Below are positions 609-20,089 of a stretch of DNA of 20,747 bases, one piece after another (positions within the stretch are counted from its first letter, which is position 1; every line of letters starts with the position of its first letter). The stretch lies in UHGV virus genome UHGV-0017034; one strand, 5' to 3'. The position numbers were made by a program, and so were the translations under genes. The notes beneath the pieces are model-generated. The model made no database searches and was not told the origin of the DNA. It saw nothing but the letters and a program-made list of their open reading frames with translations. The stretch comes from a virus.

Positions 609-662
609 TATTCTTTTCCTTCTATTTTAAACAATAGGGCACATACCCGTAATTCTATTTAT

Positions 663-965
663 TTAGCGGTTGCTCAAACGTCTATAACGAAGATGAGCGA
701 TCCCCCTATTTGTGCTAACGGTAATTACCGCCCCTTGCGGTGCAATACAAGAATGAATCTGTCCCCAATCATGACCCTTATGGCTTCCAGAAACACACAA
801 ACCATGAATAAGCAATTCAGAGTCACCACCGCCACCACCGGAAGAATGAGCACAGAATGAAATAGTCCCGAAAGCGTCGGCTGTCCAACCGTTAGGAATA
901 TCAAACCATCCTTGATTTGCTTTACCCGCCCTATTCCCCAAAGCGCCATCTACCCAAAATGCCAT
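663..965 (-). CDS. Small FDIPNGW-motif protein, paralog 3 of 3 (100 aa), function unknown
   Basis: ORF; start ATG overlaps the upstream stop (TAATG); shares M-x-(F/Y)-W, FDIPNGW, Gly/His-rich core and TVS motifs with the two upstream ORFs. Confidence 0.6.
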   Translation of the reverse strand: MAFWVDGALGNRAGKANQGWFDIPNGWTADAFGTISFCAHSSGGGGGDSELLIHGLCVSGSHKGHDWGQIHSCIAPQGAVITVSTNRGIAHLRYRRLSNR

Positions 966-1270
966 TAGTGCATTCTCCTGAATTTAAAATAATGCAAACT
1001 ACCTTTACCCAATGTAAAGCTAACGGTAGCACCAGCGCCAACTAAAGAACTAGCGCCCCAACTCCCAGCATCACCAGCATGATGACCTGATTCAATCAAT
1101 CCATTTACAGCCAATTCAGAATCAAGATCACCAGCACCGTTAATGGCTTCCATATGAGCAAAAACAATTCCGCATGAATCAGTAACCCAGCCGTTGGGGA
1201 TATCAAAATATCCACCATTAGCCCAAATACTAATAGCGTTTGACATTCTTTGATTTATCCATCCAGCCAT
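965..1270 (-). CDS. Small FDIPNGW-motif protein, paralog 2 of 3 (101 aa), function unknown
   Basis: ORF; 2-nt gap to the upstream stop; YFDIPNGW, GAGDLDSEL, WG and TVSFTLG...HYFKF motifs conserved with its neighbours. Confidence 0.6.
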   Translation of the reverse strand: MAGWINQRMSNAISIWANGGYFDIPNGWVTDSCGIVFAHMEAINGAGDLDSELAVNGLIESGHHAGDAGSWGASSLVGAGATVSFTLGKGSLHYFKFRRMH

Positions 1271-1272
1271 AA

Positions 1273-1569
1273 TTAAAACTCCATGAATTTAAAATATTCA
1301 ACACCACCTTCACCCCCTAAACCAAAGGAGACGGTGCAGCCAGCAGGAACAAACGAATTTATAGTAGATCCCCAATTGGTCCCACCACGACGACGAGCAA
1401 CGGTCAAACCATCTACGTTAATATGTGCATCAGACCACCCACCACCAGCATTATGACGCATTACAGCGACACCAGCACGAGCAGTACCATAGCCGTTAGG
1501 AATATCAAATACATGCCATTTTAAAGCATCGATTTTAGTATTAATTTCACTACTTACCCAATATCCCAT
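1273..1569 (-). CDS. Small FDIPNGY-motif protein, paralog 1 of 3 (98 aa), function unknown
   Basis: ORF with AAGGA RBS 7 nt upstream; VFDIPNGY, GGGWSD, NWG and TVSFGLG...EYFKF motifs. Confidence 0.6.
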   Translation of the reverse strand: MGYWVSSEINTKIDALKWHVFDIPNGYGTARAGVAVMRHNAGGGWSDAHINVDGLTVARRRGGTNWGSTINSFVPAGCTVSFGLGGEGGVEYFKFMEF

Positions 1570-1582
1570 ATAAGAATCCTTA

Positions 1583-1600
1583 GCGGAGATTTCTCCCCGC
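1583..1600 (-). promoter_or_regulatory. Intercistronic GNRA-tetraloop hairpin between the fiber gene and the paralog triplet
   Basis: Minus-strand RNA GCGGGGA-GAAA-UCUCCGC (7-bp stem with one G-U, GAAA loop), no U-tract, immediately upstream of the paralog-1 RBS. Confidence 0.4.
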
Positions 1601-1607
1601 TTTCCAA

Positions 1608-4600
1608 TTACCCTAATTTAGCTTCAATTGCAGCAAGACGTTCACGAAGAAGTTTATTTTCTTCGCTCATTTCTTGGACCGCTTTAATTAAAAGCGCGTT
1701 CACTGCGGAGTTTGAAATTGTTAAAATTTCTTCTGGGTTATCAAAACCACCAATTTTTGCGGTTTTAACAGCTTCCGGTAATACCTCTTGTAAATCCTGT
1801 GCGATAATACCAATCTCATGACCTATAACTTCTCGGTCATTAAGAGATTTAACTTTATCGTAGGTTTTAACTTTGAGTTTATTTACCTTATCCACCGCAT
1901 TTTCTTCGTAATCTTCAACATTAATTTTCAGACGACGATCGGAACGAATATAAACATCGTTAAAGTTTCCGTTACCAGTGGCATGAAATTCTCCACTTGC
2001 ATGGAATTGATAATCAGCACCCTGAACATGAAGAACCGCTGCCGCAGTATTATTACTATCACCGGGACAATGAACGTCCATAGCAGCGATGTAGTTACGC
2101 CCCCAATCAACCGCTTTCCAAATAGCATGAGCACTATCAACGCTTTGTTGACAGTCAACCAACAAACCAGCAGGTCGGTCTCTCCATGCAACATATGCAC
2201 CACCAGAAACCTCACCACGGATAAGTCCTTGATCTGCGGCATAAGGAACACGCCCTTCCAGTTTAATCATCGCGCCCTGGAAGTGATGTGTAAATTGTCC
2301 ACCGTGGTTATTGCGAATATGTAAAATACCCTCATCTGTAGCCCAGATAACAGCCTTTTCCGTATCGCTATCATCTCTAAACCAGACGTGGCGAGCACCA
2401 GCAGAGTTTTTGATAGTAATCCCGGAAGGTCCATGCACAGTAAAAGCGCCAGCAACATCAAACATCAAACTGTTATCTGTCCTACGTTCAGTATAGAAGT
2501 GATAACCTTTGGAATCACCGACTTCCATCACTGCCGCGCGACCAACTTCTGAATTTCCCCAATTATTAATAGAGAATCGTTCAGAGCTATTATTCATCTG
2601 ATTTAGGTATAATGTACCATCAGTGAATGTTTCGCCAAAGAATCTGGTTTTAACGCCGTTAGTACCCCCCACGCGTTCAAATTCAGCCAAGAAACCTTTG
2701 GAATCTCGCATACTCAAAACGTTATTGCGTCCTGTATTACTGTTACCCCAATGGATTAATTCAATATAGTCCATTGACTGACGAGACCCTGATCTAAACA
2801 CCATATTATCTTCGATGCGGGTGCTACCATCAATTCCCAGATGTAAACAGCGTGCGGTAGCTGTGCCACCTAGATCTAATCCACCTTCGGCGAAATCATA
2901 ACTAAATGGTCTACGAGTGTTCCACGTCCCAAAGGAATCTTTTAAATCGGTAGTAAGAATATGGAAGCTAGAACCATCATTACGAAGGATTAAACCATAG
3001 TTACCACCTTTGACAGCCAAACGAGCATTTTCAGATAATGCCACTTCGCTATTCATTACAATTTTCTGGCCTCTACCGCCAGTAATATGTAATTCACCGT
3101 CTTCAATCAGGTTTATAGAGTTTTGACCGTTGTCGTTCCACCAAATAAAATCTTTGGTCTGACCATCACCGAAGCCAAACCAGCCATTACGAACATCTTG
3201 TCCAGTGCGATAATCCATGAAATTAAAATGACTTGATTCGTTTGGTCCTCGACGAATATCAATACCAGAATTTCCAGTAACACCGCCATCCAATGTTAAT
3301 TTCTTGACATGTAACCCGGATGTTGCTGACAGCAATAATTCCTGATTTGTATCTTCGTATCCAGTAGCAAGACGATATGCGTTATCATCAACTGTCTCAT
3401 GCCAGATTGTAGCTGGTGCACAACTACGGAAGCGACGCAACATCTTTTTAGCATTTGTCGGTTGTTCGTTCAAATGCTCAATGTCATATTGGCCTTGATG
3501 ATTGCCAGCAAAATTTAATGTTCCACGGTTGCTAAAGTTATTGAACGATGAAATGTTAAGAGCATCAAAAATTTCGTCTGCAACAGGTTTTTCACCACCC
3601 AGATATTCAGGAGTATCCAACAGGTTTAAAGAAACACCACCGGAAGAAACTTGATATTCTGCTAAAACAAATCCTGTATGTGCACCGTAGTAAGCGTAAA
3701 GATCGTAATTGTCGCCATCGGTTGGAATAGCGCAAAAATGTTGTTCATAATGCCAAATAGTATAATACGCATTGAATACAACACCTTTCGGGCTATTGTT
3801 GCCGCATCGAATCACCAATTCGATAATATTGGCTTGTCCATTATGTCCTACGTTATAACCGTTACCACCAACCAAACGGATCTTAGCCGTGCGACCGTGT
3901 TGTTGTGGCATTGTCAAAGTGCCTAGTTTAAACCAACCACCCTCGATACCAAAATTAAGCGTCTTCTGGAACAGTCGGTCAATTTCTGCTTTCGAATATG
4001 CGCCAATTTCAGCCGGAGTAGGTTTATCACCTTCATGATACATGCGGTGAGAATATGCCAAATGTCCCAATTCATCATAGCCGTATGTTCTTACCGTATG
4101 AACCGGATTAGACCCATAAGTGAACTCAAAACCACGAGCATGATTAACGCCGGATGGGTGCGGAACATGCAAGATCATTGCAATATGACCCGCCAGGTCA
4201 TTCATGCGGAATGCACCAAAGTAGTCAAGATTACGCGCACTCGGATCATCAAAATAGTTTGCGGTCTTAGACAGCAAATAACCATCAGTGTAAGTGTTTA
4301 CGTGCTTTTTGATGTACTTGCCATCACTCGATCCATCGGCTGCATCAATACGGCTTTCTAAACGTGCCAGTTCGGAATCAGTGTAAGACTTGTTATTGTC
4401 AACTTTGCTATGAATTGCTGTATTTTTGGCTTCAACATCACGGGTTAATGCTGCGACGTTATCCGCTGCCTCTTGCTTATTGGCTGCAATCACACCAGTA
4501 AGGTTATTGTAGGTGTCAGTTAACTGATTTTCCGCATAGGCGTGATTTGCTGCGATAGTGCGGTCAGTTTCTGCCTTAATCAAATCAACTTTGTCATTGA

Positions 4601-5132
4601 TTGTTTTGTGATTGCTTGCGATGGTTGCATCGGTACGGGATTTAATATCATCAACTTTTTTATTGATGCGGGTGTCCAGTTCCTGAGTTGCTACAGCAGC
4701 CGCAATTTTATTAGCGTTGATGGTATCCGACAATTCAGCTTTAACACCAGCAAGATCGGAAGCAGCTTTATTTTTATTGGCATCGATTGTCGCGTCGGTT
4801 TCGCGTTTAATTACATCAACTTTATTGTTAATTTCTGCATGATTTGCTGCGATAGTAGAATCAGTAGTTTGTTTAATTTCATCTACTTTAGCGTGAATAT
4901 TGCGGTCATTTACTGCAATTGTGCTATCCAATTCTTGTTTGTTAGCATCAACTTTAGATTCTAGTGCCGCGTGAGTTTCAGGAGAAACAGAGATTTGAAC
5001 TACTTCATGATCTCGGTCTTTGGTGAAAATAACATGGTCTTTAAGGTTGATTGCTACCTCACCGACCTGTAATTGTTCCGGCGTTGGTTTTTTGCCAGAA
5101 ACATTTGTTCGTTTAAATTGGATCGACTGCAT
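1608..5132 (-). CDS. Fiber protein (1174 aa) with N-terminal coiled-coil repeats and C-terminal S74 intramolecular-chaperone autoprotease domain
   Basis: Long ORF with GAGGTGA RBS; residues ~50-260 are ~22-aa repeats (D-x-T-I-A-A-N-H...K-V-D-x-I-K); internal GYHFYTERRTDNSLMFDV resembles the P2 gpH / T4 gp37-type distal fiber region as recalled; C-terminus SDRRLKINVEDYEENAVDKVNKLKVKTYDK...LLRERLAAIEAKLG matches the S74 chaperone domain of endosialidase / T5 L-shaped fiber type. Confidence 0.85.
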   Translation of the reverse strand: MQSIQFKRTNVSGKKPTPEQLQVGEVAINLKDHVIFTKDRDHEVVQISVSPETHAALESKVDANKQELDSTIAVNDRNIHAKVDEIKQTTDSTIAANHAEINNKVDVIKRETDATIDANKNKAASDLAGVKAELSDTINANKIAAAVATQELDTRINKKVDDIKSRTDATIASNHKTINDKVDLIKAETDRTIAANHAYAENQLTDTYNNLTGVIAANKQEAADNVAALTRDVEAKNTAIHSKVDNNKSYTDSELARLESRIDAADGSSDGKYIKKHVNTYTDGYLLSKTANYFDDPSARNLDYFGAFRMNDLAGHIAMILHVPHPSGVNHARGFEFTYGSNPVHTVRTYGYDELGHLAYSHRMYHEGDKPTPAEIGAYSKAEIDRLFQKTLNFGIEGGWFKLGTLTMPQQHGRTAKIRLVGGNGYNVGHNGQANIIELVIRCGNNSPKGVVFNAYYTIWHYEQHFCAIPTDGDNYDLYAYYGAHTGFVLAEYQVSSGGVSLNLLDTPEYLGGEKPVADEIFDALNISSFNNFSNRGTLNFAGNHQGQYDIEHLNEQPTNAKKMLRRFRSCAPATIWHETVDDNAYRLATGYEDTNQELLLSATSGLHVKKLTLDGGVTGNSGIDIRRGPNESSHFNFMDYRTGQDVRNGWFGFGDGQTKDFIWWNDNGQNSINLIEDGELHITGGRGQKIVMNSEVALSENARLAVKGGNYGLILRNDGSSFHILTTDLKDSFGTWNTRRPFSYDFAEGGLDLGGTATARCLHLGIDGSTRIEDNMVFRSGSRQSMDYIELIHWGNSNTGRNNVLSMRDSKGFLAEFERVGGTNGVKTRFFGETFTDGTLYLNQMNNSSERFSINNWGNSEVGRAAVMEVGDSKGYHFYTERRTDNSLMFDVAGAFTVHGPSGITIKNSAGARHVWFRDDSDTEKAVIWATDEGILHIRNNHGGQFTHHFQGAMIKLEGRVPYAADQGLIRGEVSGGAYVAWRDRPAGLLVDCQQSVDSAHAIWKAVDWGRNYIAAMDVHCPGDSNNTAAAVLHVQGADYQFHASGEFHATGNGNFNDVYIRSDRRLKINVEDYEENAVDKVNKLKVKTYDKVKSLNDREVIGHEIGIIAQDLQEVLPEAVKTAKIGGFDNPEEILTISNSAVNALLIKAVQEMSEENKLLRERLAAIEAKLG
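1611..1943 (-). other. S74-type intramolecular chaperone domain (C-terminal ~111 aa of the fiber), predicted to be auto-cleaved
   Basis: Domain begins at SDRRLKINVED, with the conserved Ser-Asp-Arg-Arg-Leu-Lys start and a terminal coiled coil. Confidence 0.65.
4355..4985 (-). repeat. In-frame ~66-nt (22-aa) tandem repeats encoding the fiber coiled-coil shaft
   Basis: Successive units DSTIAANHAEINNKVDVIKRET, DATIASNHKTINDKVDLIKAET, DRTIAANHAYAENQL and others, read from the translation. Confidence 0.6.
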
Positions 5133-6936: not shown

Positions 6937-8943
6937 TCATTCAGCGGAGATGTGAAGAACTTTCAGAGCTTCCGGCTGGGTTACAACGTAATCCAGATCT
7001 ACCCAGATACGCGGAACGATAGCAGACTGTGCGCGGTAGGTAGTGTCATCAATGTCAAGTTCCAGACCACCCCATTCACCGATGGTAATAGCGTCGAACG
7101 ATCCCAGAACGATGTGGTCTACCGGAATAACACCAGAAGTAACTACGTCGTAACCAGCCAGTTTACCGTTTTCGATGATATAACCGGAAACACCGTTATC
7201 TTTCAGGGTAGATTCCAGTTCAGCAGCAGTTGCACCGCTCATTGCAAACTTGATCGCCTGAGCAGGAACGCCAGCGTCGGTCAGTTTAGCAATTTCTTTC
7301 AGGAAGTCTTTATAAGAGAAAGCAGCTTTCTTCTCTACGCGACCAGCATCTACCAGTTGTTTAATCACACCAGCCGGACCACGAGCATTTTCTTTATCAG
7401 ACAGAATCAGTTGTTCCAGTTTGATGCGAACAGCCTGGTTAATGTGATCAGTGATCAGAGTAGCGATGCCGGGTACGGTTTTTAGGCTCGCTCTGCTGAG
7501 CGGATTCCCACCAGCAAACGTCTTAGGAGACAGTTTCACGTTTGCAAATTCAGCTTTACCTTCCGGCGCAGCACCGTTTTCATCAACGAAGCCGAAAGAT
7601 TCAACGCTGGAAGCGGTCATTTTAGGAATAGCGGTCGGCGAAGTCAGACCAGACAGGACTTTCACACCAAGACGACCCAGAACGGATTCCGGCAACAGCA
7701 TCGCTACATAGGAATCATTCAGCAGTTTTTCGTCGGTTACAGCGGTCAGAGTAGCTTTGGTGTTACCATCAGCAGCAGCACGCATAGCAGCAGTCGGAAC
7801 GAATACAGAGCCACCGCGAGCAGCACGACCACGCTGCATAGTTGCAGTAGCAGCCATTGCAGAAAACTCGGCTTCGTGAGCACCCAGAGCTTCACCATCT
7901 ACCAGAGAGCGAATTACGTTGTTCAGGTCAAAAGTTTTTTCCATTTTAGAGTCCTTAATTTGTTGTTCGTTATTACGTTGAGCATTGACGAGATTATTTA
8001 GTGCCTTAGTGCGGAATGCTTCCGGCGTCATATCTTTAACTGCCAATGCGCGTTCTAATTCTTCGTCGTTAATATTTAGCTCGCGTGCAATTTCGCGAAT
8101 TTCTAATTCGTCTTCTTCGGAACGTTCAGCCACTTCCTCGATTTTTTCTTCTTCATCCGGAGCGGCTTCACGTTCTTCTTTTACTTCTTCTGCTTCCCGA
8201 ACAGTTGAACTATCATCATCAACACTTTCAGGATGTTCAGCGTCTTTTCCGTCTTCGAGATTTTCATCTTCTTTATTCTCTTCAACTTGGCGCTCTTGAG
8301 TTTCTTCAACTTCCGATTCTTTATTTTCTTCTACCGGAGCTTCTTCAACCGGAGCGGATTCTTGTTCTTCTTTGATTTCTTCGATTTGTTCTTTAGTCAT
8401 ATCGCGTTTAGCCTCCAAATTAACTGTGATAGTATTTAGAGAGCGATTTAAACCGACCGAATCGTCCGCCGGGACCGTCACAAATGAAATTTCGTGCGGA
8501 ATCCATTTAGAAACAATGAGTTGCGATTTAGCGTAATCGATGTGATATTCTTTAATGTCATAGCCGACAGAAATTTTTTCCATCGTACCTTCAATAACTT
8601 TATTACGAATATCATTAGCCAAAGTGCCATGTTTAGAGAATTTAACCAGAGCACGGCCTACGTTATCCGCATCGATTCGAGCGTCGCAGACTACACCTAA
8701 ATGATTATCGAAAATATGATTGAACAGCAACGGAGCGTTATTATTCAGACGAGACAGATCAACCGCTTCCGGTGTATGTACCAGAATTTCATCTAATACC
8801 ACCATTTCTTGATTTTGCTCATCCCAAAATTGGCGCTGATAAGGCTGTGTACTTGAGAAAGCAATTTCAAATTCGTATTGATCGTTATGCCCTTCGTTAA
8901 TAACTCCACCGTAACCGTTAAGATCGCGGCGAAATTTAAGCAT
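6937..8943 (-). CDS. Prohead protease - scaffold (delta domain) - HK97-fold major capsid protein encoded as one 668-aa ORF
   Basis: N-terminus has HK97-type protease motifs (PLLFNHIFDNHLG with His, KISVGYDI with Ser, HEISFVTVPADD); residues ~180-330 are an acidic coiled-coil linker; C-terminal ~340 aa has major-capsid character; AAGGTGA RBS. Confidence 0.85.
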   Translation of the reverse strand: MLKFRRDLNGYGGVINEGHNDQYEFEIAFSSTQPYQRQFWDEQNQEMVVLDEILVHTPEAVDLSRLNNNAPLLFNHIFDNHLGVVCDARIDADNVGRALVKFSKHGTLANDIRNKVIEGTMEKISVGYDIKEYHIDYAKSQLIVSKWIPHEISFVTVPADDSVGLNRSLNTITVNLEAKRDMTKEQIEEIKEEQESAPVEEAPVEENKESEVEETQERQVEENKEDENLEDGKDAEHPESVDDDSSTVREAEEVKEEREAAPDEEEKIEEVAERSEEDELEIREIARELNINDEELERALAVKDMTPEAFRTKALNNLVNAQRNNEQQIKDSKMEKTFDLNNVIRSLVDGEALGAHEAEFSAMAATATMQRGRAARGGSVFVPTAAMRAAADGNTKATLTAVTDEKLLNDSYVAMLLPESVLGRLGVKVLSGLTSPTAIPKMTASSVESFGFVDENGAAPEGKAEFANVKLSPKTFAGGNPLSRASLKTVPGIATLITDHINQAVRIKLEQLILSDKENARGPAGVIKQLVDAGRVEKKAAFSYKDFLKEIAKLTDAGVPAQAIKFAMSGATAAELESTLKDNGVSGYIIENGKLAGYDVVTSGVIPVDHIVLGSFDAITIGEWGGLELDIDDTTYRAQSAIVPRIWVDLDYVVTQPEALKVLHISAE

Positions 8944-11077: not shown

Positions 11078-12982
11078 TTAGAACGATGTTATCCAGCTAC
11101 GGCCTCTATTTGGACGTCTGACGATGTTTTGACGTTGTGGTCGTGTGATTGGCTTAGTTTCTTCTATTTGCTCGTTAGATTGCGATTTAGGAGCTTTTAC
11201 GGGTTCTTCGACAACACGGTTTAAGCTGTCTTTCATTGCAATGAGTTTATCCCATGACATTTTTGAAAGAACGTAGCGAGAAGCCGCTGTAGCATACACT
11301 GCGCAGTCGAGCGCCTCGTTCCTAACGCCTGGGTTCTTTACCCATCTCACGCCAGTAGTAGTACGCTTGACAGATTCACTTAAAAGCTGATCGAGATAAT
11401 CATCAGGAACGGTTCCTGATATTTCTAAGCTAATGTGAGGATTGTCTTTCAGGTTTCTAACCAACATTTCACGAAATGCAGTTTTACCCACGTTAACACC
11501 CAACATAAGCAATTCATGACCACCTGTGCGGGTAGGTTTAACCGGAATGATCGGAGCGTTACCAGCAGAACTACCTTTGATAGCGTGTAAGTTCTTCCAC
11601 TTGCCGCAAATACGGTATCCAGCTTGAGTGAATCGACCGTTCGATGTATCAAGGAAGCTGGCGAGCATAGGAACACGATCACCCGATACAGTAGTAAATT
11701 TGGTTTTATGGAAGTTGATTAATCTATCCCATACAGGGGATTCATATCGTTCACAGTTATGATCGTAAAAGCTGCGATGATCCAGAATATAAATCTTATC
11801 CTTTGCCACGCCCATGATTGTAGTTTCTGCGCGATCTAATTGCTGGTCAGTACCCGCACACAAGAAAATCACGTCATCAGGGATATTCTCGATAGAAACA
11901 TCTGTTTTTAGTTGTTCCAGTTCATTTGCTTCTACTGCCGTGTCCTGATCGTCGTATACCTTGCCTAACACGGTGTTATAAAATGATTGTAAATCAAAGG
12001 ATTGCCACGCATGACTAAAATCAACCACACAAGCGCGGATCGTGCTGAAAGGTGAATACAGACGGCTGATCCAGAATCCTGCTACCTCACTTTCACGGGT
12101 TGCTCTCCACTCTCCTTGTGCCACCGCCCTGATCCGCTCTCCTTCTGTCCATGCGTTCTTACAGTGGGGGCAAATATAACGAGCGGTATCAGGATCGGGT
12201 AAGTTCTTACCATCAATGTTACGCCATTCAAACTGTACGTTTTCCCACTCGATCACCTGGTGTCTACCGCAATGAGGACACGGAACAAAAAACATACGCA
12301 TATCGCTTGATAACCATTGCTGGTTAATGCTTCCGAGCTTACTGGTCGGGGTACTGGATACGACTAATCGGCCTTCATCGCCAAAGGTAGTTAAACGGTT
12401 AGCAGCCAGTGCCACCGGATCACCTTCTTCTGAGGCTGTAGCAGCATCGATTTCGTCAAGCAGTCCGACCTTTGCTGTCTTACCGCGTAGGGTTGATGGA
12501 CTAGTAAGCGATACCATATAAAGGAAGTGGTTTGATTTGAGCTGGAGCTGATTGTTGTTATTAACAGAATTGCGATCATTCTTGTCTGTAACCACGTCTT
12601 TTAATGCATCACATGCTTCGATAGACGGTCGGATCTTACCCGCGAGATATTGAGACATTTCTTTAGCGGTTGATTGTCCGATAATCATATTGCATGGATC
12701 GTTAGCCATCTGGTTAAATAGGATGCCGTTCAAGATGGTAGTCTTTCCGATCTGCGCACTGGTCATCAGAACATACTTTTTCTTGTTCTCAAGGAAAGGA
12801 GCATCAATCATACCTTTCTGGAATGACAGCAATTTAACTTTATCCCCAGCTTGAGGACCATCTACCAGCACCATATTCGCTTCGCACCATTCAGAAGGAA
12901 GGAGCTTAGGCGGTGGCGTAATATATTTGGCTGCATTTTTGAGAATCTTTTTTAATTTGGCCTTATTTGAAATCAGTTTCAT
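11078..12982 (-). CDS. terL: Terminase large subunit, lambda GpA family (634 aa)
   Basis: Walker A-like [10 protein letters not shown]; motifs matching lambda gpA as recalled ([11 protein letters not shown] vs LTAGIDSQLDR; [11 protein letters not shown] vs RRNEALDCFVYA; CPHCG...YICPHC zinc-finger-like pairs); GAGGGT RBS. Confidence 0.9.
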
Positions 12983-13670: not shown

Positions 13671-13704
13671 AGGTGAACATTCACTTTAATTTGGAGAAAT
13701 GACT

Positions 13705-13932
13705 ATGACTACTAAAGCTACTCGCGGTCGTCCTGCCCGTTTTAACGCTGAACAGATGGCTGATATTGCCTACGCTTACTATACAGCGGATCGTGGTAAG
13801 GAAGCGAAAGAACAGATTCTTAGTGAACATGGGATCTCAATCGCCCAATTCTATAAGAATATGAAGAAGTTAGACATTAAATTCTATGTTCAGATCGGTG
13901 ATGGTCAGATCGTAGAAGCAACAGGTTTTTGA
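13705..13932 (+). CDS. Small HTH protein (75 aa), paralog of the 17159-17338 product
   Basis: N-terminal ATRGRPARF; HGISIAQFYKNMKKLDIK HTH-like motif; GGAG RBS is correctly spaced for the ATG at 13705 rather than 13699. Confidence 0.55.
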   Translation: MTTKATRGRPARFNAEQMADIAYAYYTADRGKEAKEQILSEHGISIAQFYKNMKKLDIKFYVQIGDGQIVEATGF

Positions 13933-15893: not shown

Positions 15894-16085
15894 AGTGGAA
15901 ATCCTCTAAAAGAAAGTGAATCAAGTAAGTTCACTATTATTTATAACGAGAATTTTTTATCTATTTGGAAGTGATTGGATTCAGTCGGGCTAAAGCCCTC
16001 CTTCATATATTTGATTAAATCATCATCAAAACGAAGAAGTATCTTTAGAATATAAGAATCTTTCTTTTGGAGAAATTATAATCAG

Positions 16086-16350
16086 GAAGCAATTTAGCAA
16101 CCGAAGGTTGCAATCCCGAAGGGATACCAATACCTTTCTAGAAAGTGATTGTTACTCACTTCGTTCGTTTACTAGAATCAGTTAGTAACTAGTATTAAAT
16201 CCCTTTCTAAGAAAATCCTTTCAAAAGCGAGTGAACGCCGTAGGCGTGAACGTGAGCGAAGCGAACTATCCAATCCCTTTCGAATCCTGCTTGCAGGTCT
16301 TAGAAGGTGTTGATGGGCGCTTCGCGCACGGCTACGCCGTATTCTTTTTG
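16086..16350 (+). ncRNA. Candidate structured noncoding RNA (hairpin-dense, ORF-free, ends at a terminator)
   Basis: Hairpins GCAACC-GAA-GGTTGC (16097-16111), ATCCC-GAA-GGGAT (16113-16125), palindrome CTTTCTAGAAAG (16134-16145), AGTGA/TCACT, ACGCC-GTA-GGCGT, CCTGC-TT-GCAGG; stops in all frames; weak TATAAT at ~16074; 5' end uncertain. Confidence 0.3.
16317..16350 (+). terminator. Rho-independent terminator (plus strand) with tandem hairpins
   Basis: GCGC-UUC-GCGC then ACGGC-UAC-GCCGU followed by AUUCUUUUUG; no protein-coding gene upstream on this strand. Confidence 0.6.
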
Positions 16351-16471
16351 CGAGATCTTTCTTGAACGTAGTGAGAGAAAACGAGCAAAAAGGAGAACGT
16401 TAGTTCGAATTTTATATTCTATGGTCTGTGGGGTGAAATGTCTTTCAAGATCATACACTTATGAGATTGAA

Positions 16472-16593
16472 GTGTAGGGTTAGTGTAGGTGTGTAGGTTT
16501 CATAGTGTAGGTTTGAGGGTGTTATAGTGTAGGTTTACTGACTAGTGTAGTGTAGGCCAATCCCTTTAAAGCGTAGGTTTGTAGTGTAGGTTT
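16472..16593. repeat. Iteron array: about 9 copies of GTGTAGG(TTT)
   Basis: Copies start at 16472, 16483, 16491, 16505, 16527, 16550, 16584, with a variant GCGTAGGTTT at 16571 and a half-site at 16545; spacing often 11 or 22-23 bp; flanked by an AT-rich tract (16594-16700). Confidence 0.7.
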
Positions 16594-16698
16594 TTCATCA
16601 AAAATTTTGATAGAAAATTCTTGTATATTATTTAACCGGAAAATCACCAAAAATCGCTGTAAATGCATGATTTAAAAAGAATTATCAAAAGGTCGCCG

Positions 16699-16707
16699 TG
16701 CTATAAT
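16699..16707 (+). promoter_or_regulatory. Extended -10 promoter element TGCTATAAT
   Basis: TG-n-TATAAT perfect match; -35 weak. Confidence 0.35.
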
Positions 16708-16787
16708 AGGTTATAAAGGTTGATAATCGTTATCCGCCATTTTCACACAAAAATTTTGATAGTCATTTCTCGCTTAGGTCAAGTGCA

Positions 16788-16816
16788 TTGACAACTGTCA
16801 AGGATTATTTTATACT
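16788..16816 (+). promoter_or_regulatory. Sigma70 consensus promoter TTGACA-17-TATACT with overlapping palindrome TTGACA-AC-TGTCAA
   Basis: -35 at 16788-16793, -10 at 16811-16816, exact 17-bp spacer; GTCAAGTGC 9-mer at 16778-16786 shared with the 15358 region. Confidence 0.6.
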
Positions 16817-17158
16817 TTTTCTCATTGGTAGGGGTTGAAATTTTCGAAACAATCCCCATATTGATGATAAACAAGATTTTTTCGTGTATAAATACATGCA
16901 TGAAATGATTGTTCACTTCTGAAAATCCCCTGATTCACTGTTAACACACACAGCACTGGTTAAACACACAGTGCCTTTTCGATTGAATAATGTACGAATT
17001 GATTAATTATTAATCTTCTCTTTAGCAATTCGTGCTCCCGCTGATCAGATATACAGTGGTTTTGCAGGGTTTTCTGAAATGACTTTTATAAATAGAAGTA
17101 TCGAGGGCGAAAAGCTCTTTTTATTGTCCTTATTAATCCACATTTGAGGAATCTACTT

Positions 17159-17338
17159 ATGGCTAGACCTGTTAAGTTTACTCGTGAAATGATTGTTGAT
17201 ATTGCTAAACGCTTTTATGGCGATACTGAACGAGGCGGCGAGAATTTCTTTAAGAAGGAAGGAATTGATAGAAGCGGATTCTATAAGCTAATGAAGAAAT
17301 ACGAAATTCAGATAAAGATTAACGTTCAAGTTTGTTAA
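17159..17338 (+). CDS. Small HTH protein (59 aa), paralog of the 13705-13932 product
   Basis: GAGGAA RBS 9 nt upstream of ATG 17159 (the track ORF begins at a TTG at 17144); MARPVKFTREMIVDIAKRFY...GIDRSGFYKLMKKYEIQ parallels the other paralog. Confidence 0.55.
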   Translation: MARPVKFTREMIVDIAKRFYGDTERGGENFFKKEGIDRSGFYKLMKKYEIQIKINVQVC

Positions 17339-17379: not shown

Positions 17380-17409
17380 AAGCCTCCCTTGTTGCAGCAA
17401 AGGAGGCTT
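17380..17409. promoter_or_regulatory. Long hairpin between the small HTH gene and the 333-aa gene; terminator-like only in minus orientation
   Basis: AAGCCUCC...GGAGGCUU with inner UUGC/GCAA pairing; plus-strand A-run upstream gives a U-tract only on the minus strand. Confidence 0.4.
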
Positions 17410-17454
17410 GAAATGAACAATTAAAACTAACACAGCATTCAGGAGTATTTATAA

Positions 17455-18456
17455 ATGAAAAATTCTAAGCGCATCACCTTCAACCTGTTTATTAAATCCA
17501 ACGGCAAACTGAACATTACCGTCATGGAAGGTAAAGCAAGCAAACAAGACAAATCCTTTGAAGTAGTATCCGGTAAGACTCTGACCGAAATGCGTCAGAA
17601 TGCTGGCATCAAAGACGGTGCTGAATGGCAGATCACTAACCGTTTCGACAAACGTCACGTTAAACCTACACTGGTAGAAGGTGAATCCGTTTATTGCTTC
17701 GCTCGTGCTGTTAAAGCCGATGAAACTTACTATCTCGCTGTTGTTAAAACTGCTTCCGGCTTCCGTGCTGTAATGCATCACAAGAGCAAGCGTAACGAAT
17801 ACGGCGTAGAGACCCAGGAAGTCGCAAAACGCTTCCGTACTGTTGCTACCGAATCCACTGTAAAGGATGTTTCTGGTACTGTTAACACCGTTAAAGGCGG
17901 TTCCTTCTACAACCACGCATTACAGGTTACTTCCTCCTTCTTCTGCAAAAAAGAAGCACAGAAAGAAGTTGCTCCGGTAGTAGTTGAAGAAGTTAAAGAA
18001 GAAGTTGCAGTGGTTGAATCTTCCGAAGTTGAAGCACTGAAAGCACGCATTGCTGAACTGGAAGCTGAAAACGCATCTCTGAAAGCTGAACTGGCAGCAC
18101 AGGAAACCACTTTCGAAGTAGCAGCGGTTGAAGTTGAAGCAGTTGAAGAAAAATCCATTGATGAAGAACTGGAAGAACTCCTTAACTATCGCTGGGGTAA
18201 CGGTGAAAAAGTAGAACAGGAAGAACAGAAAGAAGCTGATCCGGTAGTAGTTCCGGTTGAAGAAAAATCCGCACCTGTTACTAACTTTGAATCCCTGCGC
18301 AATAACTTTATGGCTAAATTCAAAACCACTTGGGAAGATACCGAAGAAGAACAAGAAGAGATTGAAGTAAACGAAGACGAGATCCGCGAAGCACAGATGG
18401 CACTGCATGACGCTATCTACGACACCAACTACAGCGCCTACGCATACGCAGCTTAA
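17455..18456 (+). CDS. Hypothetical abundant protein (333 aa): N-terminal globular domain plus acidic Glu/Val/Ala-rich coiled coil
   Basis: AGGAG RBS; codon usage visibly different from neighbours (CGT, CTG, GGT, TCC, ACC, GAA, AAA, TTC, TAC preferred), typical of highly expressed E. coli-type genes; leucine-zipper-like EALKARIAELEAENASLKAELAA. Confidence 0.8.
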   Translation: MKNSKRITFNLFIKSNGKLNITVMEGKASKQDKSFEVVSGKTLTEMRQNAGIKDGAEWQITNRFDKRHVKPTLVEGESVYCFARAVKADETYYLAVVKTASGFRAVMHHKSKRNEYGVETQEVAKRFRTVATESTVKDVSGTVNTVKGGSFYNHALQVTSSFFCKKEAQKEVAPVVVEEVKEEVAVVESSEVEALKARIAELEAENASLKAELAAQETTFEVAAVEVEAVEEKSIDEELEELLNYRWGNGEKVEQEEQKEADPVVVPVEEKSAPVTNFESLRNNFMAKFKTTWEDTEEEQEEIEVNEDEIREAQMALHDAIYDTNYSAYAYAA

Positions 18457-18471
18457 TAGAGGGGTGAATCT

Positions 18472-18714
18472 ATGATGAATCAAAACAAAGAATTTCTGGG
18501 TAATCTGATGTTAGAAATTACCAAAATGAAAGAAAGAATGGTAGCGATGGAATCAGAGATTAAAACACTTAAAGCTGATAATAAGGCGTTGAGAAAGTCC
18601 TTAAAGCTGATTGATGAGACTAATGCGGTTATGATGGATCATGTATTCCCTGAGTGGCGAAATGAAACTAAACCTACACAACATAAGAAACTTACACTTC
18701 GAATTGTTGCATAA
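18472..18714 (+). CDS. Small coiled-coil protein (80 aa)
   Basis: GAGGGG RBS; heptad-like MKERMVAMESEIKTLKADNKALRKSLKLI; starts 16 nt after the upstream stop. Confidence 0.55.
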   Translation: MMNQNKEFLGNLMLEITKMKERMVAMESEIKTLKADNKALRKSLKLIDETNAVMMDHVFPEWRNETKPTQHKKLTLRIVA

Positions 18715-19426: not shown

Positions 19427-19978
19427 TTAAGACACATCAAATTCATCGTCTTCTTCTGGTTCTTGTTCCGGTTCATCCATTAATGGTAATTCTTCTTCCT
19501 CGTCTTCTCCCAAATCTGCATTTTCGAACAAGTCCCCTACTTCATTTAAACGACGCTCGATAATCTCTCTTAGCTTATTCTTCAATGTTTTCTGGTCATT
19601 GGCAGATTCGAGAATTTCTAGGGCATCGATTGTGGCGATCTGCAAAATAGTCTGCTTCACTTTCCCGCAATATTCCGCTAGCTCCTGCTCCACATACCCG
19701 ACGGGAATCAGGAGATTCATCGCTTCCTGGTTCTCTCGTTCGGCTGCATCTGCTAATGCTCTCTCACGGCGTAATTTCTCTACGTCGATTTGTTCCTTGA
19801 CAGTAGTTTCTTTAAGCGGGTTGATGATATTTTTCAAGACCCATTCTGTTCCTTCTTTGGCTGGCACGCGGCGGGTATTGGTATTAAATGGCATTCCTCG
19901 TTCTTGCCATTTCTTAGCGGCGTTAATTGTATAGCCGTATAAACGGGAAATTTCTGTAAGGGTTAATTCTTCTTTCAT
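19427..19978 (-). CDS. terS: Terminase small subunit, lambda Nu1-like (183 aa from the RBS-supported start)
   Basis: LTLTEISRLYGYTINAAKKWQERGMPF parallels the lambda Nu1 N-terminal HTH (IFGASIRTIQNWQEQGMPV as recalled); acidic C-terminal tail; GGAGGA sits 8 nt upstream of Met-6 (19978), while the first ATG at 19993 has no SD. Confidence 0.65.
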   Translation of the reverse strand: MKEELTLTEISRLYGYTINAAKKWQERGMPFNTNTRRVPAKEGTEWVLKNIINPLKETTVKEQIDVEKLRRERALADAAERENQEAMNLLIPVGYVEQELAEYCGKVKQTILQIATIDALEILESANDQKTLKNKLREIIERRLNEVGDLFENADLGEDEEEELPLMDEPEQEPEEDDEFDVS

Positions 19979-20089
19979 CCGGTTATCCTCCATTAAATTT
20001 GCGTAAAATTATTTATCTGATCTGCGCATTCAGGAGAGCGCCTAAAACGCTTTATAACGAAGGGAAAGATCGAGGCATGGAAAGGGATT

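Follow-up and report, generated by a model that had tools for sequence, protein, structure and literature searches.

The slot gene and its surroundings

The DNA analyzed here (the window) is a 20,747-nucleotide stretch of the viral genome UHGV-0017034. The subject of the analysis is the gene at positions 17455-18456, together with an array of short direct repeats that lies upstream of it. The open reading frame (ORF) comprises 333 codons, begins with ATG, and carries the sequence AGGAG (17441-17445) 10 bases before its start; it is a real gene. Two antisense ORFs (17449-17916 and 17920-18483, both on the minus strand) were treated as lying wholly inside it and were not counted as genes. Different proteins occupy the same position in related prophages; this position is called the slot, its products are called slot proteins, and the version found in the window is designated type A.

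The window is part of a ca. 35-kb E. coli prophage that is inserted in ycdX and has a gene for a large serine recombinase at its far boundary. The larger part of the window is taken up by morphogenetic genes in leftward orientation, which encode the tail tube, a tail fiber, a protease-capsid fusion, a lambda-type portal, and a gpA-type large terminase (TerL). Past the terminase lie a few small genes, including one that is Rha/Ant-like, and then a 1.26-kb stretch without ORFs (15894-17158). This stretch precedes a rightward operon of three genes: one for a small helix-turn-helix (HTH)-like protein, the slot gene, and a coiled-coil ORF. The leftward gene for the small terminase (TerS) follows. 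The slot gene is thus located 4.5 kb beyond TerL, in the early/control region and outside the structural module. The features of this region are collected in Table 1.

Table 1. Features of the control region and the slot operon, in window coordinates
Feature	Position	Strand	Remarks
Variable cassette 1: GC-rich inverted repeats, then array	16228..16595	.	blastn breakpoints vs. L011, L016, L018
Direct-repeat array, core (A)GTGTAGG(TTT); putative cognate binding sites	16468..16595	+	ca. 0.9 kb upstream of the slot gene
AT-rich spacer (65-75% A+T); candidate unwinding or operator region	16596..16787	.	
Near-consensus sigma-70 promoter, TTGACA-17-TATACT	16788..16816	+	toward the operon; 11/12 matches
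Tandem LexA-box-like sites, CACTGT-N8-ACAGCACTGG-N8-ACAGTG	16936..16973	+	
Third, degenerate LexA-like site, CTGATCAGATATACAG	17041..17056		near conserved TATAAAT
Conserved terminator-like hairpin and T-run in the leader	17103..17119	+	just before the small HTH gene
Small HTH-like gene, 59 amino acids	17159..17338	+	first gene of the operon; no co-variation with the repeats
Conserved hairpin, 12-bp stem	17380..17409	+	just upstream of the slot gene; minus-strand intrinsic terminator
Slot gene, allele type A	17455..18456	+	ORF and translation; 333 amino acids; codon adaptation index 0.70; orphan family
N-terminal basic alpha/beta domain, residues 1-165; putative DNA-recognition part	17455..17949	+	
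Leucine zipper, residues 192-216, Asn206 at an "a" position	18028..18102	+	heptad analysis, predicted helix
Acidic, indel-rich linker, then short C-terminal helices, residues 217-331	18103..18447	+	
Terminal Ala-Ala; candidate ssrA-like ClpXP degron	18448..18453	+	
Downstream coiled-coil ORF, 80 amino acids, ending ...LTLRIVA	18472..18714	+	same variable cassette as the slot gene

Co-variation of the slot protein with the repeat array

When related E. coli prophages are aligned to the window, nucleotide homology ends exactly at the start codon of the slot gene. The slot in these relatives encodes a different protein of the same layout, i.e. an N-terminal domain of ca. 165 residues that closes with a hydrophobic strand containing FF, an acidic coiled coil, and an acidic tail. 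Among the prophages of E. coli, Salmonella, and Proteus, at least six hyperdivergent allele types were distinguished. Type A occurs in the window and L005, type A' in L003, type C in L013, type D in L014, and type E in L019 (Salmonella), L021 (Proteus), and P0126; type B is the commonest. Although only ca. 20% identical, the types are homologous, as shown by weak shared motifs (e.g. Y-x-hydrophobic-A-V ... R-x-x-M-x-H-x-S-(K/R)-R).

The array in the window features seven exact copies of GTGTAGG and one degenerate copy, all in a single orientation and spaced by ca. 11, 22, or 34 bp; elsewhere in the 20.7-kb window the exact heptamer occurs twice, which is about the chance expectation. Each genome contains one array only, and the repeated unit differs among the types: GTGCAGG in type A' (5 copies), CAGGGGCAA in type B (6-10 copies), CGGGGA in type C (13 copies), GGAATCTTGGGG in type D (5 copies), and CTAGGGAT in type E (14-15 copies). 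Across the types, 68 of 70 copies point one way. The spacings between adjacent repeats (n = 60) fell within 1.5 bp of a multiple of 10.5 bp in 77% of cases, compared to 29% expected, and the type E arrays contain runs of seven 11-bp tandem copies. The single orientation, the 10.5-bp phasing, and the tandem runs of type E give the repeats the character of binding sites in double-stranded DNA; because they are helically phased, double-stranded DNA rather than RNA is the probable target. An RNA-sponge function, as for the G-rich motifs of CsrB, was considered less likely, given that the spacing follows the helical repeat of DNA.

The pairing of alleles and arrays was examined in 40 loci: the window itself, 26 loci taken from IMG/VR, and 13 from assemblies of E. 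coli, Salmonella, Proteus, and metagenomes. The type of the array matched the type of the slot N-terminal part in all 40. Two N-domains shared 78% identity or more if their repeat type was the same and 47% or less if it differed. The neighboring gene products behaved otherwise. Between loci with differing arrays, the identities reached 97% for the small HTH protein, 97% for ORF152, 90% for Rha, 99% for TerS (A vs. B), 100% for ORF200, and 100% for HTH77; being 90-100% identical across repeat types, all six were rejected as the repeat-binding factor.

Recombination among these prophages separates the pairing from its surroundings. Variable cassette 1 is swapped together with the slot gene: L011 (allele B, array B) is non-homologous to the window (A, A) only at 16228-16595 and 17455-18713, and the intervening 859 bp are 90% identical, including a small HTH protein that is 97% identical. 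Conversely, L023 (A, A) retains both cassettes, and its middle segment is replaced. An identical HTH variant was observed with both A and B allele/array pairs. Because the DNA between the array and the gene recombines freely and the pairing is nevertheless never broken, the pairing is not mere linkage. A natural chimera, L049, has residues 1-243 of type B, residues 244-319 of type D, and an array of type B; it maps repeat specificity to residues 1-243. These comparative data indicate that the slot protein binds DNA in a sequence-specific manner and that its target is the DNA of the phage itself, and it is probable, with good confidence, that its N-terminal part binds the cognate array.

Several loci showed additional peculiarities. 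Type B phages with an L001-like middle segment (L001 22830-22895 and most type B loci, L035-L047) have one to three copies of the type A repeat (GTGTAGG) in and around the spacer of a perfect-consensus operon promoter; these may be either recombination relics of an A array or cross-regulation sites for a co-resident type A phage. In L015, an IS3 element takes the place of the array, the HTH gene, and the 5' end of the slot gene, and the slot gene of L023 is frameshifted. In L011 (E. coli PE15, NZ_CP041628.1), a colistin-resistance unit, ISApl1-mcr-1.1, was inserted just downstream of the slot gene (L011 6560-8714).

Codon usage

The first-pass annotation of the window, made from sequence alone, had proposed that this gene is strongly codon-optimized, and the calculations bear this out. 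The codon adaptation index (CAI) was scored with the E. coli weights of Sharp & Li. The slot gene had a CAI of 0.702, the highest of the 24 ORFs in the window; the tail tube gene scored 0.62, the protease-capsid gene 0.48, and most others 0.22-0.35. When the same amino-acid sequence was re-coded from the pooled codon usage of the other genes, the CAI was 0.411 ± 0.025 with a maximum of 0.513 in 5000 draws, such that the difference of the actual gene from its neighbors is highly significant (z = 11.7). The value also exceeded those of all 29 flanking E. coli chromosomal genes (mean 0.30, maximum 0.55); since the maximum belonged to the curli subunit gene csgA, the scale was taken to behave as expected. 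The bias spans the whole gene (0.64-0.80 in sliding windows) and is on par with that of capsid and tail-tube genes. Slot homologs and alleles from E. coli, Salmonella, and unassigned contigs scored 0.55-0.70, each at the top of its locus where the neighbors were scored, and a high rate of synthesis is favored for this reason. The Proteus copy scored 0.37 on E. coli weights and was second in its own locus.

A separate irregularity was noted in the protease-capsid fusion gene (6937-8943, minus strand), the CAI of which is ca. 0.3-0.5 over codons 1-330, jumps to 0.75-0.78 at codons 332-390, and remains at 0.46-0.78 onward through the capsid part. This jump suggests an internal translation start or nested scaffold/capsid products that far outnumber the protease part.

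Protein architecture and family searches

The slot protein has two halves of opposite charge. Residues 1-170 are basic (isoelectric point (pI) 9.8) and include the conserved motif R-x-x-M-x-H-x-S-(K/R)-R, and residues 171-333 are acidic (pI 4.05; 46 D+E vs. 13 K+R). Within type A, the N-domain is the most conserved part, with 5-15% polymorphic columns. The zipper follows the heptad register V192-L195-I199-L202-N206-L209-L213, and 6 of 300 shuffled sequences scored equally well; the asparagine at an "a" position would be consistent with a parallel dimer. The motif LKAR..LE.EN..LKA is kept in types A, A', and E. The segment at residues 217-331 contains indels and 20-45% polymorphic columns within type A, and the predicted local distance difference test score (pLDDT) is below 50 over much of it. 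The protein terminates in ...YDTNYSAYAYAA, the last residues being YSAYAYAA. The globular N-terminal domain, the acidic zipper-containing segment, and the Tyr/Ala-rich C-terminus described in the first-pass annotation are therefore all present.

AlphaFold was run on the full-length protein (pLDDT 56) and on the N-domain (pLDDT 60), both runs being limited by an alignment of four sequences. An alpha/beta core at residues 30-110 was predicted with moderate confidence (pLDDT ca. 80-90), followed by a single long helix predicted over residues 185-248. Since the model rests on four sequences, a new fold cannot be claimed.

The question of a known structural family was addressed by several searches, and no family was found. 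Comparison to Pfam, PHROG, and NCBIfam yielded no real match, the sole PHROG match covering 25 zipper residues at E = 0.003. A profile of the N-domain found nothing at E ≤ 10 in the PDB sequence library, and the fold search with the predicted structure returned no match. A similarity to the PUR-alpha/Whirly fold, a lead toward single-stranded-DNA binding, was dropped as insignificant (E = 0.64). Neither megablast nor tblastn of the slot gene matched any of 50,697 phage records. An exhaustive HMMER search of 1.84 billion representative proteins found six relatives, all from the same phage lineage; three of the six were full-length, at 66, 44, and 28% identity. A profile built with four homologs found no further relatives. 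Literature searches for the protein accession and for a ycdX prophage gave nothing relevant.

The C-terminus and the downstream ORF

All slot types except B end in AA or VA, despite C-terminal regions that cannot otherwise be aligned (AYAYAA in the window; RRAA, LKAA, DFAA, RKAA, NIAA, LNVA, and KNVA in other types). An Ala-Ala-COO- terminus is the main determinant in the recognition of ssrA-type degrons by ClpXP (PMC7652416). The conserved terminal Ala-Ala or Val-Ala suggests that the slot protein is subject to ClpXP turnover.

The ORF that follows the slot gene shares this tendency at its own end. Its counterparts end in LRLVG, LRLVA, or LRVVA, and the post-slot genes in general, which are variable in length (74-333 amino acids) and encode coiled coils, always end in ...LR(L/I/V)V(A/G), resembling the engineered fast-degradation "LVA" variant of ssrA. 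The genes in question are L005 11040-11264, L013 6105-7106, L014 5361-6221, L019 11047-11328, and the ORF after the slot in L049. In E. coli and Salmonella loci, a post-slot gene accompanies the slot alleles that end in AA or VA and is absent with type B; the Proteus type E locus, the slot protein of which ends in ...NVA, has no post-slot ORF. In types C and D, the post-slot gene encodes a full-length, paralog-like protein with an N-terminal domain of its own.

The control region upstream of the operon

The spacer between the array and the promoter of the operon is ca. 195-235 bp long in types A, B (L011), C, D, and E. In the window it contains two 15-bp palindromes (ATCAAAAATTTTGAT, 16597-16611; CACAAAAATTTTGAT, 16746-16760). 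Midway between them is a perfect extended -10 element (TGcTATAAT, 16699-16707), which looks like a second, operator-flanked promoter within the AT-rich segment. The sigma-70 promoter is kept in L003, L005, L011, L013, and L014, and it scores 12/12 in L001 and 11/12 in L019. Extra cognate repeats are located at or near this promoter in L003 and L005. Candidate weak leftward promoters were found on the other side, beside the array (16444-16409).

The leader contains LexA-like sites (CTGT-N8-ACAG), the arms of which are conserved and the 8-nucleotide spacers of which differ among the window, L005, L012, L013, L014, and L019. Such sites suggest SOS control of the operon in a phage that has no recognizable cleavable repressor, and their conservation favors expression in the lytic phase. 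A TATAAAT sequence (17087-17093) is conserved upstream of the leader hairpin. Another leader motif, CTCTTTAGCAATTCGTGCTCC, is conserved as well, with one copy in the window (17019-17039) and two in L003. The leader hairpin falls ca. 300 nucleotides past the sigma-70 promoter; the segment 16788-17125 could accordingly specify a non-coding or attenuator RNA of ca. 300 nucleotides, reminiscent of the RNA-based immunity of P4 and P1.

Allele types A, A', B, C, and D all retain the hairpin just upstream of the slot gene, and in 4 of its 10 predicted pairs both partners have changed in one sequence or more. Read on the plus strand, the 3' arm of this hairpin constitutes a perfect Shine-Dalgarno sequence (AAGGAGG) that is followed by a mini-ORF, ATG-AAC-AAT-TAA (17413-17424). 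Mini-ORFs of two to four codons occur at the equivalent position in L001, L003, and L005. The element (17380-17424) may be a device for translational loading or coupling, or it may stabilize the mRNA.

The remainder of the ORF-free stretch, 15894-16467 (corresponding to L003 8509-9130 and L005 8376-8990), is conserved in patches across diverged phages. It is dense in short GC-rich hairpins and inverted repeats, e.g. GCAACCGAAGGTTGC, ATCCCGAAGGGAT, and GGCGTGAACGTGAGCGAAGCG / CGCTTCGCGCACGGCTACGCC at 16243-16338. This part could be the cohesive-end site (cos) of a phage with a gpA-type terminase, a structured leader RNA of the leftward operon, or a set of single-strand initiation signals. Rfam had nothing in the window, and nothing in the ORF-free region at E ≤ 1.

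Relatives of the prophage and other genes in the window

No close relative of the phage was present among the 50,697 deposited phage genomes, in which only the tail-fiber gene found matches and the best capsid match was 45% identical at the protein level. A TerL-based search of species-representative genomes likewise found no close relative. The tail-fiber gene (1608-5132, minus strand; match zone 647-4269, including genes downstream) is 79-94% identical at the nucleotide level, over up to 3.4 kb, to the long-tail-fiber distal-subunit genes of virulent T-even phages (RB3, KFS-EC, vB_EcoM_G37-3, and others). This similarity looks like a recent horizontal exchange of host-range determinants.

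The TerL (11078-12982) and TerS (19427-19993) genes are 6.4 kb apart, with the whole early/control region between them, and TerS adjoins the attachment site in the integrated prophage. The small HTH-like proteins encoded at 13699-13932 and 17159-17338 are paralogs that share the motif RP-x-(K/R)FT-x-E...IAK. Both genes are rightward islets in an otherwise leftward genome, and neither co-varies with the repeat arrays. No replication gene was recognized among the scanned genes, which cover the non-structural genes of the prophage.

Interpretation

The slot gene most likely encodes a dimeric DNA-binding protein, and the array to which its variable N-terminal part is matched would probably mark the origin of replication or the early control region of the phage. 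The reading preferred here is a tentative one, and it was put together from sequence comparisons: the slot protein may be a dimeric protein that binds the repeat array and acts as the origin-recognition or initiator protein of the phage. Two chains would dimerize via the short parallel zipper, each basic N-domain would read one direct repeat of ca. 11 bp, and successive dimers would align on one face of the array. The resulting nucleoprotein complex, analogous to that of lambda O on its iterons or of plasmid Rep proteins, would serve as the origin-recognition complex of a phage that has no recognizable replication protein. It would open or expose the adjacent AT-rich 190 bp, and the acidic C-terminal half would recruit host replication factors. 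The protein would be made in a burst from the slot operon after SOS induction, by virtue of the strong promoter, the LexA-like boxes, the good Shine-Dalgarno sequence, and the optimal codons, and it would be removed or remodeled by ClpXP via the C-terminal Ala-Ala. Hypervariable allele/array pairs would prevent related phages from cross-activating each other's origins.

An origin role is favored because there is a single array, because an AT-rich segment of 190 bp lies beside a consensus promoter, and because no replication gene was recognized. The putative SOS-linked expression and ClpXP-type turnover speak for it as well, as do the extra repeats near the operon promoter of L003 and L005, an arrangement also found in autoregulated Rep genes. 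Several observations weigh against it. No homology to any known initiator was found, with no winged-helix, Phage_rep_O, or Rep_3 match, and a search of the region for a cluster of DnaA boxes (TTWTNCACA) and for the consensus of integration host factor found neither. An 11-bp tandem spacing is more typical of ParR/parC or Cox/Apl arrays than of the 19-22-bp iterons of Rep proteins. Replication initiators are normally of low abundance, and codon adaptation at the level of structural genes is poorly explained by such a role. L001 and L003 lack the AT-rich spacer, their arrays being directly adjacent to the promoter. The LexA-like boxes are located outside the strongest promoter, and a terminator-like hairpin is located between that promoter and the operon. 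Type B, the commonest type, ends in ...YCQ rather than AA. Finally, DNA binding by the protein is deduced only from co-variation.

Much of the same evidence would suit a regulator of the lysis/lysogeny switch, possibly the immunity determinant, that polymerizes on the array and represses or activates the leftward and rightward promoters; we consider this possible but somewhat doubtful. The diversity of alleles and arrays would then represent hetero-immunity types. Co-variation supports this role equally well, as repressor/operator pairs are the classic hypervariable specificity pair among close temperate phages. The array is in a divergent intergenic region beside the candidate leftward promoters, in L003 and L005 the rightward promoter has cognate repeats directly beside or downstream of it, and B-type phages such as L001 have A-type repeats within the spacer of the promoter. 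The spacing of one helical turn is like that of Cox/Apl-type regulator arrays, and no other repressor candidate was identified in the family scans. However, in most types the array is ca. 200 bp off the rightward promoter and overlaps no strong promoter, and the LexA-like leader boxes suggest SOS induction, which runs counter to the requirements of a maintenance repressor. Lysogens in which the operon is broken persist (L015 and L023), although those prophages may be otherwise defective, and known repressors generally show weak expression and poor codon adaptation. An abundant architectural or self-marking protein that nucleates at the array and organizes or coats phage DNA was judged unlikely. 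Examples would be a scaffold like phi29 p6, a centromere complex like ParR/parC, or an accessory factor of packaging specificity working with the terminase near cos. Codon adaptation at the level of structural genes suggests stoichiometric rather than catalytic amounts, the 5-15 phased sites include tandem 11-bp runs as in R1 parC, and the array is situated between TerS and TerL, beside GC-rich inverted repeats that could be cos. Yet integration by a serine recombinase leaves a partition system without obvious use, the TerS that is present does not co-vary with the array (99% identical across A and B), and the repeats are not enriched elsewhere in the genome, nothing in the sequence pointing to spreading.

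The first-pass annotation had listed a DNA mimic or anti-restriction protein, a modifier of the nucleoid or of RNA polymerase, and an internal virion protein as candidate roles, for which the link to the repeats would be a by-product of linkage. The acidity of the C-terminal half is in keeping with these proposals, and an early-type operon with a consensus promoter and very high codon adaptation recalls T7 gene 0.3; the cassette-like swap of alleles that breaks exactly at the start codon also resembles hot spots of defense and counter-defense. All the same, these roles are very improbable. They are unsupported because the N-terminal 243 residues co-vary perfectly with the upstream array in 40 loci; array and gene are co-inherited across an independently recombining segment of 0.86 kb, for which linkage alone is insufficient. 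The conserved, specificity-bearing part is the basic N-domain, which speaks against a DNA mimic, and the protein resembles neither Ocr nor ArdA nor any family of virion proteins. The location of the gene in the early/control region, outside the virion module, is at odds with an internal virion protein. A scaffolding protein was also rejected on the basis of gene position and co-variation with DNA, the PHROG matches of coiled-coil type being weak (E ca. 0.002-0.009). It is possible that the acidic tail functions as an intramolecular DNA mimic or as a partner-binding region.

A broader proposal, which we regard as improbable, is that the slot protein is the founding member of a very abundant and hitherto unseen class of phage proteins devoted to "self-DNA marking". 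A hypervariable reader domain with a new DNA-reading fold would nucleate on a private, helically phased array, and the zipper and acidic tail would assemble a large nucleoprotein body. This body would link the firing of the origin to the lytic switch and to the discrimination of self from non-self among co-resident relatives, with an Ala-Ala timer that is read by ClpXP and shared with the partner that ends in ...LRLVA.

If the proposed recognition of the array by the slot protein holds, an orphan family reads short DNA motifs without detectable relation to known DNA-binding folds. The six natural allele/repeat pairs and the chimera would be ready-made material for working out a recognition code and could yield orthogonal DNA-binding parts. 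The protein would also be the first point of entry into the functions of a temperate lineage that is widespread in E. coli, Salmonella, and Proteus and has no annotation for its early genes, replication origin, or immunity system. Codon optimization at the level of structural genes, taken together with the ssrA-like end, implies a protein that is synthesized at a very high rate and quickly removed, which would be unusual for an origin or switch protein.

Comparison with known systems

A close parallel to the preferred reading is lambda O at ori-lambda. In both cases, a type-specific N-terminal part is matched to direct repeats that adjoin an AT-rich segment, closely related phages differ in their specificity pair, and a transcribed promoter is nearby. 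Lambda O is a ClpXP substrate, and the iterons of ori-lambda are 19 bp long and located inside the O gene. Unlike lambda O, the slot protein has no sequence or fold similarity to such initiators (no Phage_rep_O or winged-helix match), its repeats, which are ca. 11 bp long and spaced by 11 or 22 bp, are found 0.9 kb before the gene, a P-like partner is missing, and its codon adaptation is far higher. Plasmid initiators (RepA of P1, pSC101, and pPS10, pi of R6K, and TrfA of RK2) form dimers, bind same-orientation iterons, and have sites near their own promoters; RepA of pPS10 features a leucine-zipper-like motif, and plasmid initiators are remodeled by Clp chaperones. The slot protein is like them in that same-orientation direct repeats co-vary with the protein. 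It differs from them in having no Rep_3/winged-helix signature, no DnaA boxes, a zipper that is central instead of N-terminal, an acidic C-terminal half of 160 residues, and very high codon adaptation.

Among regulators, the Mu repressor c consists of an N-terminal DNA-binding domain, a leucine-rich oligomerization segment, and a C-terminal tail that controls degradation by ClpXP, and it binds multiple sites in the early control region. The three-part layout of the slot protein parallels this arrangement. The Mu repressor, however, has 196 residues and is neither acidic nor codon-optimized; there is no homology between the two, and the slot operon bears LexA-like boxes. ParR/parC of R1, Cox of P2, and Apl of 186 exemplify cooperative binding to direct repeats one helical turn apart beside a promoter, and the array described here is phased in the same way. 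Those proteins, by contrast, are ribbon-helix-helix or HTH proteins of ca. 90-120 residues, whereas here there is no ParM-like partner and the phage integrates into the chromosome via a serine recombinase. The p6 protein of phi29 is a very abundant early protein that forms a phased complex at replication origins, regulates early promoters, and has an acidic C-terminal tail. Unlike the slot protein, p6 has 103 residues, reads the bendability of DNA, and has no allele/repeat pairs, and no homology exists between them.

Some RefSeq records for a protein in related prophages, possibly the slot protein, carry the name "bZIP" (basic leucine zipper). The short parallel zipper with Asn at an "a" position is indeed like that of eukaryote-type bZIP transcription factors. 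Unlike in those factors, the residues before the zipper (171-191, EEVKEEVAVVESSE) are acidic, there is no basic helix, and Pfam bZIP gave no match; the label would thus reflect the zipper only. Ocr and ArdA differ from the slot protein in that its N-terminal half is basic and has no family or fold match to these DNA mimics. In its apparent mode of action, the slot protein resembles a specificity protein that binds iterons or operators; in sequence and fold, it stands apart from the Rep_3- and O-type initiators, bZIP factors, DNA mimics, and scaffolds. With expression at the level of structural genes, a zipper joined to an acidic tail, and an ssrA-like end, it represents an uncharacterized family in an uncharacterized lineage that, as far as its function can be deduced from sequence comparison, appears to do a familiar type of job in an unusual way.

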